Assembly: GCA_965219535.1 (NCBI GenBank)
Contig: CBDCNV010000001.1
Location: forward strand, 1,620,001-1,652,000
Direction: 5' to 3'
Length of the DNA: 32,000 nt
DNA from: Opitutales bacterium
GTDB lineage: Bacteria > Verrucomicrobiota > Verrucomicrobiia > Opitutales > PNEW01
In this document: positions 10,311 through 22,024 of the stretch, piece by piece
How the letters are laid out: each line of letters begins with the position of its first letter
Numbering within the stretch: the stretch's first letter is position 1
The notes under the pieces: model-generated
The model's database searches: none
What the model saw: the letters and a program-made list of their open reading frames with translations, nothing else
What the model was told of the DNA's origin: nothing
Position numbers and translations under genes: made by a program

Positions 10311-10666
10311 GGGGGTGTTCCGGAATTCGACCTCGAGTTGGAGTGCATGGTGGCAAGTCGGAGATGATGGCTCGGCTCCGTTATCAATCGCCATTACCAT
10401 ATAATTGGCAACCAAGAACTTGCTCTTGCTGCGTAATTAACGCAACACGTCTTGATGTTGACACCTGCTAGGCATTAAAGGCGACGTTTGCAGGTATAGC
10501 CCACATCGGGGATCCGGAGTGTGGGTGGTACGTTCTATCCGGATTCTAGTTGACCGGAAGTCTGCTTGTTTGCAACCGGAAGGCGAAACTTAATAACAAG
10601 CTAAACTTGTAGAGGCCATACACAAAACCTCCTGGGACGCGGGTTCGACTCCCGCCACCTCCACCA
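10311..10666 (+). ncRNA. ssrA: tmRNA (SsrA), 356 nt
   Basis: The 5' end GGGGGTGTTCCGGAATTCGAC and the 3' end GGACGCGGGTTCGACTCCCGCCACCTCCACCA form a tRNA-Ala-like acceptor stem (GGGGGTG/CACCTCC) with the G3:U70 wobble, a T-arm GCGGG-TTCGACT-CCCGC and an encoded CCA. The internal tag frame 10407-10436 is GGC AAC CAA GAA CTT GCT CTT GCT GCG TAA = (G)NQELALAA*, the canonical ...ALAA degron. Confidence 0.93.
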
Positions 10667-10668
10667 GC

Positions 10669-10697
10669 CTTCGCCATTGGCGTAGGCTGCCACGTCG
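10669..10697 (+). repeat. 29-nt hairpin-forming motif DR1, copy a (two nt after the tmRNA CCA)
   Basis: cttcgccattggcgtaggctgccacgtcg. It can fold as gccttcgcc-att-ggcgtaggc. It recurs at 11107-11135 (27/29). Confidence 0.7.
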
Positions 10698-10698
10698 T

Positions 10699-10767
10699 AG
10701 CTCATAGAGCGAAGACGGGCTTAACTGTACAAGCGTACCATTCTCTTCGGCTACGGCTTGGCAAGCC
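10699..10767 (+). repeat. ~69-nt module B, copy 1 (between DR1a and GIY-YIG gene 1)
   Basis: agctcatagagcgaagacgggcttaac...ttctct...acggcttggcaagcc aligns with 22202-22268 (agctcacggagcgaagacggacttaac...ttctct...acggcatgcaaccc). By hand alignment about three quarters of positions are identical. Confidence 0.6.
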
Positions 10768-10847
10768 AGCTTAATAAATTACACAGTTCATTCACTTGCA
10801 GAGTAATCGTCTTCTTAAGTTGCGACTATTCAGACCGTAGCTAAATT

Positions 10848-11096
10848 ATGAAGGGATTCCATTATATCTACATGATGAATTCTATAAAATACCCAAAAAG
10901 AATTTACGTTGGTTCAACTACTGACCTCGAATCAAGGCTCACCAAACACAATCACGGCGAAGTGCCTTATACTTCAAAGTATATTCCCTGGCGCATTAAA
11001 ACAGCTGTTGCATTCTCCGATTCTAAAAGAGCAATGGCATTTGAATTGTATCTCAAGACTGCTTCTGGGAGATCTTTCGCAAAGAAACACTTCTAA
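10848..11096 (+). CDS. Stand-alone GIY-YIG (URI-domain) nuclease family protein
   Basis: 82-aa ORF: ...HYIYMMNS...RIYVGSTTDLESRLTKHNHGEVPYTSKYIPWRIKTAVAFSDSKRAMAFELYLKTASGRSFAKKHF. This is the GIY...YVG motif pair with conserved R and H/N spacing, typical of the ~80-100 aa single-domain clade. Confidence 0.85.
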   Translation: MKGFHYIYMMNSIKYPKRIYVGSTTDLESRLTKHNHGEVPYTSKYIPWRIKTAVAFSDSKRAMAFELYLKTASGRSFAKKHF

Positions 11097-11106
11097 AATA
11101 ATAACA

Positions 11107-11135
11107 CTTCGCCATTGGCGAGGGCTGCCACGTCG
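11107..11135 (+). repeat. 29-nt hairpin-forming motif DR1, copy b (between the two GIY-YIG genes)
   Basis: cttcgccattggcgagggctgccacgtcg. Two substitutions (TA>AG) relative to copy a still allow the stem cttcgcc-att-ggcgagg. Weaker similarity continues ~15 nt further (tagc-catag). Confidence 0.7.
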
Positions 11136-19778: not shown

Positions 19779-19928
19779 CTTGGTATCATGAAGTTGACGA
19801 GCTTCCTAAATATCTGTCAAGCTTCTAGCCTTGGGGTAAATAAAAGTGGTGGGTAATTCCATATGACTTATTGAGAATGCCCAACCCGTTCAGGTTTATA
19901 CCTTTCCCTTTCTTAACTCCCGGGGATC

Positions 19929-20972
19929 TTAAGCTTCTTCCCATACATCTACATTCAACTGCTGCACACGTTTGTCCAGGACAGGAACTCGTTTACCGGT
20001 TCTGACCGCTTTGACTGCCGCGAAAACCATGGCAACGCTGTGTATGTTGTCAAATACATCTGTTTGCGGTCGTTTACCTCTTTTTACTGAAAAAATAAAG
20101 TCGTTAAGAACAAAATCCTGCAAGGTGTTTTCCGGTCCTTTTGCCCGAAACGTATCTGTCCTATTAACCTTGTAAAGCTTGGGCACCTTCCTGAGAGAAA
20201 TCTTTCCATTCTCATATGAAATGGACCCCTTACTACCCTCAATCTGCCAGTTGCCATCCACGCTACAGAATTGACCCTTAGAAGACCAGCTCGCGTTGTA
20301 GACGACACGTACATTATTCTCCATCTCAAACACCAGCGAAGACGAACTGTCACCTTTGTAGTTTGACCATGCAGGATTCCAGGCTTCACCTCGGACAGAC
20401 ATGGCATTGAGACCGGTAACAAAGCGAACGAGGTCAAAATGATGTATCGCCATATCAATTAGGAGAGGATCCCTCATTTCATGACGGAATCCACCGCCAA
20501 AATCATGGCCCATATAGAAATCTATCTTAACCTGGCCGATATCGCCAATCCGTCCACTTTCGACCAGACGAGCGAGTGTCCATGTTTCCGGTCTATAGCG
20601 ATAATTCTGGCTGACAACACATGTCTGTCCGGTATTTCGTGATGCTCTCAGGATTGACATGCAACTGGCAAGATTATCGGCCATCGGTTTCTCGGTAATC
20701 ACGTCAAGACCCGCCTTCATGGCCTGGACCACACACTGCTTGTGATACTCAGGTGGAGTAACGCATACGAGGGCATCCGCTTTGACCTTCTTCAACGCTT
20801 CGTTCAGTTTTGAGAAGCAAATATCTTTTCCGTAATTCCCAACTTTGCGGGCAGCCGTCAGGGCAGTCTGATTCACATCTACCAGCGCAACGACTTCGAC
20901 AGATGAATTATTTGTCAGCCGTTGTACCCACCCTTTGCCAAATCCACCTACACCAATTTGAATGAATCGCAT
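19929..20972 (-). CDS. Gfo/Idh/MocA family NAD(P)-dependent oxidoreductase
   Basis: 347-aa ORF with an N-terminal Rossmann motif MRFIQIGVGGFGKGW, the EKP motif (VITEKPMA) and a C-terminal alpha/beta dimerisation domain of typical length. Confidence 0.9.
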   Translation of the reverse strand: MRFIQIGVGGFGKGWVQRLTNNSSVEVVALVDVNQTALTAARKVGNYGKDICFSKLNEALKKVKADALVCVTPPEYHKQCVVQAMKAGLDVITEKPMADNLASCMSILRASRNTGQTCVVSQNYRYRPETWTLARLVESGRIGDIGQVKIDFYMGHDFGGGFRHEMRDPLLIDMAIHHFDLVRFVTGLNAMSVRGEAWNPAWSNYKGDSSSSLVFEMENNVRVVYNASWSSKGQFCSVDGNWQIEGSKGSISYENGKISLRKVPKLYKVNRTDTFRAKGPENTLQDFVLNDFIFSVKRGKRPQTDVFDNIHSVAMVFAAVKAVRTGKRVPVLDKRVQQLNVDVWEEA

Positions 20973-21019
20973 TTTTTCTATTCTCTTGTGATTTCATTTC
21001 CGCAGAACGTCAAGCCTCA

Positions 21020-21616
21020 GTGGTCGACGAGCCGGTGCACGCCTACATCACGCAGGAGGTGATGACGCCCCTCGAGATGCAAGGCGCTGCGTTCGTGTGG
21101 ACAGGGAACGAGGACCTGCCCGTTGCGCATACGCACGATGCGGAAGGTAAAGCCAAACCGAAGGCAATTCTGCCCAAGATGAATGCCGCCGCTAGTCTTC
21201 ACTGCAGCGCGCTGGATTACGCCCGCTTCCTGCGCATTGTGCTGACACAGCCTCGCGACCATCCGCTTCGACTTTCGGATGATCTACACCGCGCGATGTT
21301 CACGCCGCAGGTCCCGGTCAACGACTCCATCGACTGGCACGACGACTGGCCACGGAAAACCACTCGACTGCACGATACGATCCAGTGGGGTTTGGGCTGG
21401 GGCATCCATCGCGACGACGACCAGCTCGCTGCGTGGCAGTGGGGCTCAAACCCTTGCACACGATCGTTCGTCATCGGCTTTCCCGAATCCCGTACCGGCG
21501 CGGTCTTCATGGGCAACAGCGGCAACGCAGAACGACTCTGGGGCGAATTGACGCAAGCACTTTTCGGGGAACCTTTCCCACCAGTGGAGTGGGTAGAGAA
21601 GAGCTCCGGGGCTTGA
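21020..21616 (+). pseudogene. 5'-truncated serine hydrolase (beta-lactamase/PBP4-like, class-C fold) gene fragment
   Basis: The 198-aa frame matches only the C-terminal half of PF00144-type proteins (...ITQEVMTPLEMQGAAF..., WGLGWG...GAVFMGNSGN). The N-terminal S-x-x-K and Y-x-N regions are absent. There is an abrupt rise in GC at ~21010 immediately next to the Gfo/Idh/MocA promoter region. Confidence 0.7.
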
Positions 21617-21779
21617 CGACCCGAGAGGCCGTTATTTGGATGATATGCGATGTGGCTACACGCTCGCGAGAAAACCACTATAGGCATGGAAAAGGAACGG
21701 AAAACAAATCGCTGCACTTGACGGTAATTCCACTGCGCTCCATCCCCACCAGTGAGCTCAATCGTTATTGATTCACTTC

Positions 21780-21856
21780 AGGAAAATCAATCCGCTGCAT
21801 ACGGGTTTATGGATTGAGGATTGAGTCGATGTGTTTTTGCGAGACCCCTCCCCCCT
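21780..21856 (+). repeat. Junction-associated repeat D, copy 2
   Basis: See copy 1. The core at 21791-21815 is followed by gaggattgagtcgatgtgtttttgcgagacccctcccccc. Confidence 0.55.
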
Positions 21857-21995
21857 TCTTTTATGTGAGCGTTTTGTGCATGATATTTTGGGTATTCGGG
21901 GACATTCGTTGCCTATCAGTGCCAAATTAAATAATGTGGAGATTTTGCAACGTTCGTAATTGCATGATCTTATGCATATTACTAAATTGCACTAT

Positions 21996-22024
21996 CGCGG
22001 TTTCGACTCCCGCCACCTCCACCA
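21996..22024 (+). repeat. Displaced tmRNA 3'-end fragment (attR-like)
   Basis: cgcggtttcgactcccgccacctccacca is 28/29 identical to 10638-10666. No matching 5' acceptor strand, tag ORF or pseudoknot region lies upstream, so it is not a second tmRNA/tRNA gene. Confidence 0.8.

Follow-up and report, generated by a model that had tools for sequence, protein, structure and literature searches.

Does a direct repeat of the 3' end of a transfer-messenger RNA (tmRNA) gene delimit a mobile island when no integrase lies between its two copies? The question is raised by a 32-kb stretch of the genome of an uncultured Opitutales bacterium (contig CBDCNV010000001.1, positions 1,620,001 to 1,652,000; the whole stretch is hereafter called the window), in which the last 29 nucleotides (nt) of the tmRNA gene, ssrA, recur 11.4 kb downstream. 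Prophages and genomic islands are reportedly integrated at the 3' ends of ssrA or transfer RNA (tRNA) genes by tyrosine integrases (K. P. Williams, 2002-2003), and an island that is mobilised site-specifically is expected to be present or absent with its boundaries at the cores of the attachment (att) sites. An earlier note, made from the letters of the window, took the two copies for the attL/attR scar of an element that had integrated into ssrA, and offered three explanations for the lack of an integrase: a decayed remnant, mobilisation in trans, or non-canonical machinery. The evidence gathered here favours the first of these. With a probability of roughly 0.6, the distant copy would be an old attR scar at an ssrA locus that is prone to rearrangement; the element that made it would have gone, and native-type genes would have refilled the space.

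The displaced 3' end of ssrA

The window contains a single tmRNA gene, which ARAGORN places at 10311-10666 on the + strand with the tag GNQELALAA and which scores 137 bits in Rfam (gathering score 47). Relatives keep the promoter region of the gene, from about 10261 on. The gene, the two copies of its 3' end and the first gene beyond the second copy are as follows.

10311-10666, + strand: intact ssrA (ARAGORN, Rfam), 97.5-99% identical in three loci of relatives (L002, L017, L137)
10638-10666, + strand: attL-side copy of the 29-nt repeat, comprising T-stem, T-loop, 3' acceptor strand and CCA
21996-22024, + strand: displaced, attR-like tmRNA 3' fragment, 28/29 identical to the ssrA end
22509-24050, + strand: sodium:solute symporter (SSF) gene (Pfam), first gene of the conserved distal flank

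The 29-mer that ends the gene, CGCGGGTTCGACTCCCGCCACCTCCACCA, and its copy in the same orientation, CGCGGTTTCGACTCCCGCCACCTCCACCA, share a 23-nt perfect core that stops at the CCA, just as the earlier note had recorded; their sole mismatch is the last base of the 5' T-stem strand. With three mismatches tolerated, the core has exactly two matches in the window, and 100 shuffles yielded none. The DNA of relatives that we compared amounts to about 526 kb of loci; within it the 29-mer is restricted to tmRNA 3' ends, so that it is no dispersed repeat; it is specific to ssrA, and its recurrence is significant. No second tmRNA is present in the window: a relaxed Rfam scan gave just a 12-bit partial tmRNA match ending at 22024, so the second copy is a bare 3' fragment, displaced without the rest of the gene, as had been supposed. 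The tmRNA promoter (10290-10308) has an inverted match of 19 nt at 14556-14574, which extends no further and was taken as chance.

Bounded on the left within the T-stem and on the right by the CCA, the displaced fragment has the form expected of an integrase-made attR. Similar fragments are found in IMG/VR, where the same 23-mer occurs in 106 stretches, 69 of them within full tmRNA genes and 37 as fragments, with identity blocks of 23 nt that begin at the T-loop or of 26-29 nt that begin in the T-stem. Genes matching the Pfam family Phage_integrase lie 20-290 nt from fragments of 27-29 nt in four of these sequences (L077, L078, L079, L125), and three of the four integrases also match Arm-DNA-bind_2. 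No tmRNA of the lineage studied here was found in IMG/VR.

The linkage of the fragment to the distal flank is conserved in a second lineage. In genome D (loci L148 and L149; 96% identity to the window from 22202 onward) the same symporter gene is preceded by a decayed fragment, AGGTTCGACTCCCGCCACCA, from which 6 nt have been deleted. Because the fragment stands beside this gene in both genomes, the scar is older than their split. Polyamine and PspA genes lie further upstream in genome D, and no tmRNA is found there within 10 kb. The distal flank itself (SSF, GH172, aminotransferase IV, McsA, McsB, ClpC) keeps its synteny, at 91-96%, in L002, L138, L148 and L149. Thus, the attR anatomy, the distal linkage in two lineages and the integrase-adjacent fragments of IMG/VR all support an attL/attR scar in ssrA; the part of that claim that treats 10667-21995 as a unit does not survive the comparisons described below.

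A different arrangement is found in genome C (L002; 91% identity), in which 240 nt separate the symporter gene from the whole tmRNA gene, which lies with about 50 nt of promoter on the opposite strand (L002:1-600 versus window 10261-10666 and 22408 onward). This arrangement fits an ancestral ssrA-symporter neighbourhood. The contig stops exactly at the CCA, which may reflect population divergence at the att core, and no inverted repeats were reported at the breakpoints between the window and genome C, 10261 and 22408. A search of the relatives for a clean empty site, that is, ssrA joined directly to the distal flank in the same orientation, found none; genome C has ssrA near the symporter gene but inverted. 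The attR junction, CACCTCCACCATTCGACTCCGG, had 0 matches in a scan of JGI metagenomes.

Named homologues put the window in the Verrucomicrobiota, with an Opitutales metagenome-assembled genome as its closest named relative. More distant loci added little. Symporter homologues at 82-84% (L003, L004, L150-L152) and 70-74% identity (L005-L007, L154) stand in unrelated contexts with no tmRNA and were set aside as uninformative. A scan of GTDB genomes with a degenerate tag peptide returned one close relative (L017). The other sequences matching the GNQELALAA pattern (L008-L026), which are pattern matches only, come mostly from Flavobacteriales (Kaistella, Chryseobacterium, Halpernia, Elizabethkingia) and in some cases from Chloroflexota; a Verrucomicrobiota match (L021) was discarded, as it is without a tmRNA.

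Short elements beside the two copies

The earlier note held that the flanks diverge right after the CCA. This is so within the window at the junctions themselves, but further downstream both copies are followed by the same 74-nt element, and the fragment of genome D is followed by the 32 nt that adjoin ssrA in the window. The short elements concerned, here called A, B and C (C' on the distal side), and the palindromes and spacer near them are listed here; genome B is the relative assembled as OY829953.1 / ERZ28669063 ctg27034 (loci L017, L137 and L138; 92-96% nucleotide identity).

10667-10772, + strand: ssrA flank, made up of element A (10667-10698) and element C (10699-10772)
11107-11135, + strand: second copy of element A, not in genome B
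11557-11637: near-perfect palindromic element of 81 nt, an inverted repeat with a 28-bp stem (-52.6 kcal/mol, z -11)
21865-21995: spacer of 131 nt between the cassette end (see below) and the tmRNA fragment
22020-22108: window-specific palindrome, an inverted repeat with 26-nt arms (-65.7 kcal/mol, z -9.2)
22178-22275, + strand: distal flank, made up of the 3' 24 nt of element B (22178-22201) and element C' (22202-22275)

Element A (about 30 nt) forms a 10-bp hairpin directly after the CCA (-16.2 kcal/mol, z -2.9); with B (50 nt) and C (74 nt) it makes up tandem units downstream of ssrA that are placed like leaders before the GIY-YIG genes described below. A and C after ssrA are 96% conserved in genome B, and within the 526 kb of relatives all three elements are restricted to the neighbourhood of tmRNA 3' ends or fragments. 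Element C starts 33 nt past the CCA of ssrA and, at 73% identity, 178 nt past the CCA of the fragment. In genome D the decayed fragment is followed by element A, 32/32 identical to 10667-10698, and then by C', across an identical junction, CCA-GC-CTTCGCC. IMG/VR has 0 matches to CCA followed by element A. The C' of the window is 89% identical to that of genome D; overall, ssrA-side and distal copies of C agree at 73-77% and orthologous copies at 89-91%, a difference that fits an old event. The low identity between C and C' points to such an event, or else to an incoming copy that may already have diverged.

The window-specific palindrome forms part of a 177-nt stretch (22025-22201) that stands at the place of element A in genome D, and its left arm takes in the last 5 nt of the tmRNA fragment. 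One arm, TTCGACTCCGGC, resembles a T-loop and T-stem. No copy of this palindrome was found in any fetched locus save the window's own contig (L001), and the same is true of the spacer 21865-21995, which could be the leftover of an element arm. The 81-nt palindrome near ssrA is a dispersed element, with copies away from ssrA at L138:3867-3949 and L137:11486-11567.

The homology beyond the CCA would also arise without an integrase if about 120 nt, comprising the T-arm to the CCA and elements A and C, had been duplicated locally in tandem, at a locus already amplifying A-B-C units, and insertions between the copies had followed, or if circular DNA bearing this sequence had been inserted by Campbell-type homologous recombination. 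The junction in genome D, with its intact A ahead of C', argues for such an origin, as do the A-B-C units that stand in tandem after ssrA, three in genome B (L137:4028-4482) and two in the window, and the lack of any recombinase trace in the interval. On the other hand, in the window as well as in genome D the duplicated sequence begins within the T-stem, as do the integrase-made blocks of IMG/VR, and this agreement would have to be a coincidence; more steps are also needed, namely a duplication and the later insertion of more than 10 kb. We consider an origin of this kind unlikely.

The position usually held by an integrase is occupied by two tiny GIY-YIG genes, an assignment of the earlier note that Pfam bears out.

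10848-11096, + strand: GIY-YIG gene 1, 82 amino acids (aa) (Pfam PF01541, E 5.5e-13)
11205-11429, + strand: GIY-YIG gene 2, 74 aa, N-terminally truncated (Pfam GIY-YIG, E 6.6e-15), not in genome B

The truncation of gene 2 is deduced from its alignment, which starts only at profile position 14. Gene 1 has a 91% identical copy at the same post-ssrA position in genome B, whereas the segment 11107-11429, which holds the second A and gene 2, is missing there. In the 526 kb of relatives, gene 1 and elements A and B always adjoin a tmRNA 3' end, whether real or a fragment. This restriction and the tandem amplification of the associated A-B-C units could suggest selfish cassettes homing to the ssrA 3' flank, with nuclease breaks as the source of both duplication and turnover. 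We find this hardly credible. The sole copy of gene 1 outside the window, in genome B, is in the orthologous position and gene 2 was found nowhere else, which gives no evidence of mobility; the two proteins are bare domains of 74-82 aa without a DNA-binding module, the second of them truncated; the other taxa fetched have no GIY-YIG gene near a tmRNA; and homing by break repair would not yield a direct repeat of the target. Scarcely more probable is a lineage-specific selfish cassette of GIY-YIG genes and A-B-C repeats, directed at the ssrA 3' flank and causing duplication and turnover there without an integrase; if true, this would account for both the duplicated stretch of about 120 nt and the missing integrase. 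A literature search on GIY-YIG genes adjoining tRNA genes returned nothing relevant, and nothing points to the non-canonical machinery that the presence of these genes had brought to mind.

A mosaic between the repeats

Most of the interval between the two copies of the repeat is taken up by a cassette of genes typical of the lineage.

12100-21864: cassette of lineage-typical genes, 9.8 kb (Pfam; homologous block in L133)
12160-14442, + strand: Ig_7 secreted protein, 760 aa (Pfam)
14691-15449, - strand: ThuA (Pfam)
16113-18182, + strand: SBP_bac_5, a family-5 solute-binding protein (SBP) (Pfam)
about 18143-18312: Ig_7 paralogue fragment, a 145-nt copy of the 3' end of the Ig_7 gene (18143-18287) after the SBP gene
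18903-19778, - strand: PhyH dioxygenase (Pfam)
19929-20972, - strand: GFO/IDH/MocA oxidoreductase (Pfam)
21020-21616, + strand: beta-lactamase-family pseudogene, C-terminal half only (profile positions 163-313 of 329)

The earlier note had seen no recombinase or excisionase among these genes, and wider searches agree. No interior open reading frame contains a recombinase domain by Pfam, and at E<=1 a Pfam search of the six-frame translations of all intergenic stretches between 10667 and 22520 gave neither an integrase or resolvase nor an excisionase or transposase. The lone six-frame match, of 12 bits, is to the end of a DDE transposase profile (DDE_Tnp_1_4 C-terminal, E 0.06) and falls in 15440-16125. 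A tblastn search with five tyrosine integrases and the insertion sequence 3 (IS3) family transposases of the relatives found no match in the window, PHROGs revealed no phage-specific content in it, and no integrase lies anywhere within its 32 kb. The interior is not foreign in composition: its GC content, 0.479, falls between those of the flanks, 0.496 and 0.464, and its tetranucleotide correlation with the flanks equals the correlation between the flanks.

Comparison with genome B shows that the first kilobase after ssrA can be followed by other genes than those of the window. Window positions 10166-11637, comprising ssrA, the 106-nt flank of A and C, GIY-YIG gene 1 and the hairpin, are common to both genomes at 89-96%, as are the genes upstream. 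Collinearity is first broken at the palindrome 11557-11637, past which genome B has an extra guanylate cyclase gene of about 2 kb and then an Ig_7 paralogue at 84% identity; weaker homology sets in from 11876. In genome B the distance from ssrA to the symporter gene, which keep the same orientation, is 34.7 kb, the 10 kb upstream of the symporter gene hold no tmRNA fragment, and homology to the window is regained only at 22381. Genome B also has an extra 4.2 kb between a PhyH gene and ssrA (L137:4985-9180 versus window 10159-10166), with genes for a GNAT acetyltransferase and a TAtT/DctP/DctQM TRAP transporter; since this segment is missing from the window, the upstream side of ssrA is a site of insertion and deletion as well.

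The bulk of the interval, conversely, is found as one block without ssrA. In L133, window 12100-21864 is present at 96-98% identity, pseudogene included, between Pup-proteasome genes on one side and an AlbA_2 gene and an IS3 copy on the other, and that locus has no tmRNA, tmRNA fragment or GIY-YIG gene. The core of the cassette, 12262-21024, recurs at 92-98% in five more contexts (L139-L144), which brings the total to at least six different contexts, often adjoining IS3, and ten contigs share an identical ThuA protein. Copies of IS3 lie on both sides of the block in L140 and L141, in the manner of a composite transposon, and on one side in L133, L139 and L144. No IS3 protein or DNA remnant was found in the window, and the block there has no IS copies at its ends. 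The interior also contains debris of rearrangement, namely the Ig_7 fragment and the half beta-lactamase gene, which begins where the L139-L144 homology ends, at 21024.

Several further observations concern the cassette copies. The counterpart of the pseudogene in L133 aligns in two overlapping pieces, consistent with a frameshift. The window and the copy in L142 stem from one metagenome sample. In the ThuA-SBP spacer of the window, about 165 nt (15836-16000) are not present in the other cassette copies and are 79% identical to L138:20862-21026, which lies beside an IS110-family transposase gene; in L144 the same spacer has received an IS1595 element and a methyltransferase gene.

On the left, the window departs from close relatives at 11637 (genome B) or 12100 (L133), and on the right at 21864 (L133); none of these points is a repeat core. 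Given these boundaries, a first kilobase that stays with ssrA in genome B and a 9.8-kb bulk that moves independently and occurs elsewhere in L133, the interval does not look like a single island, contrary to the claim that it had integrated as one. The absence of an integrase is then unremarkable, as the 11.4 kb would be no mobile unit. Judged from the sequence comparisons, 10667-21995 would be a patchwork of ordinary chromosomal genes that have been rearranged repeatedly; a discrete mobile island is not supported as a unit.

These boundaries also bear on whether the interval could be an integrase-less island that is still mobile, with an integrase from elsewhere in the genome, or a visiting element, acting in trans on its att sites. 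Some observations are in keeping with such cis-mobilisation. The 23-nt core is perfect in both copies, similar elements have been proposed for the ssrA islands of Dehalococcoides (PMC3146451), and in L139 an element with a tyrosine integrase adjoins the Ig_7 end of the same cassette. Against it stand the differences from close relatives that lie off the att cores, the presence of the attL-side kilobase in genome B with a different interior, the movement of the cassette independently of the fragment and the decay of the fragment in genome D. The att sites themselves have one T-stem half-site mismatch, and the palindrome inserted at the edge of the attR copy abuts it. The L139 integrase was rejected as a candidate ssrA integrase, as it is only 22-24% identical to the ssrA-linked integrases of IMG/VR, and it has no relatives in that database. 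Mobility of this kind is, in our judgement, quite improbable.

Probable origin and fate of the scar

The observations are best accommodated by an old integration whose element has since disappeared. An ancestor of this Opitutales group would have received an element that integrated site-specifically, most likely by means of a tyrosine integrase, in the T-loop region of ssrA. This element would have supplied the gene with a new 3' end, apparently along with a copy of the short hairpin flank, keeping ssrA at work, and the native 3' end would have been pushed towards the symporter gene. The original element and its integrase would since have been lost, and the space between ssrA and the scar may have become a hotspot for insertion, deletion and rearrangement. 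It would now hold a GIY-YIG/repeat module that stays by ssrA and the 9.8-kb sugar/oxidoreductase cassette, which appears to recombine around genomes, often with IS3. This account draws on direct observations, namely the repeat and its presence in a second lineage, the mosaic interior and the absence of recombinases; the part played by an integrase and the order of the later events are what we infer from them.

Several points weigh against this account. The duplication runs past the CCA through A and C, over about 120 nt in all and about 95 nt beyond the CCA, which is longer than most att identity blocks, and it requires an attachment site on the element (attP) that carried a copy of the ssrA flank. 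The relatives offer no clean empty site, and the JGI junction scan was blank. Fragments or integrases could lie in the 20 kb of the genome B interval, or at the ssrA locus of genome D, that fall outside the compared sequence. The arrangement in genome C is that of a short-read contig ending exactly at the CCA, and all the comparisons are based on metagenome assemblies, the window itself being from a long-read metagenome.

Of the features that characterise an island integrated in a tRNA or tmRNA gene, the intact gene and the direct repeat are present here, and an integrase, an empty site and a foreign interior were not found. The locus therefore resembles the islands made by tyrosine integrases at ssrA and tRNA genes in having an intact tmRNA at one end, a direct repeat of the 3' end, from T-arm to CCA, at the other, a displaced fragment linked to the original distal flank, and counterparts in IMG/VR that adjoin integrase genes. 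It differs from them in that it has no integrase or excisionase, no foreign composition, no unit behaviour and no empty site, and in that the homology of its two ends reaches about 95 nt past the CCA. The locus counts as a remnant of integration only, not as an active island.

A closer parallel in some respects is provided by Dehalococcoides, in which the region downstream of ssrA is highly variable and marked by direct repeats of the ssrA 3' end, with insertion in the T-loop (PMC3146451). Some of the repeat-bounded segments in these genomes are without an integration module and are regarded as fixed or as mobilised in cis (PMC3146451). The Dehalococcoides islands have a serine recombinase module (DsiB) at attL, 20-bp repeats and tandem arrays (PMC3146451), whereas the locus described here, in the Verrucomicrobiota (Opitutales), has one 29-nt repeat and, instead of a serine recombinase module, two GIY-YIG genes. 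The cassette, for its part, is like an IS-flanked composite in L140 and L141, where it lies between two IS3-family copies, and to a lesser extent in L133, L139 and L144, with one copy each; the block in the window differs in having neither an IS nor an IS remnant.

No new mechanism is indicated; what is seen is familiar integration traffic and decay at a tmRNA gene. For pipelines that search for islands, it follows that a direct repeat of a tRNA or tmRNA gene does not by itself delimit a mobile element. The locus would be an example of an aged ssrA integration site in uncultured Opitutales, at which the att scar, common to sister lineages, outlives the element that made it, and native genes, shuffled about by recombination and the activity of IS elements, fill the bracketed space.

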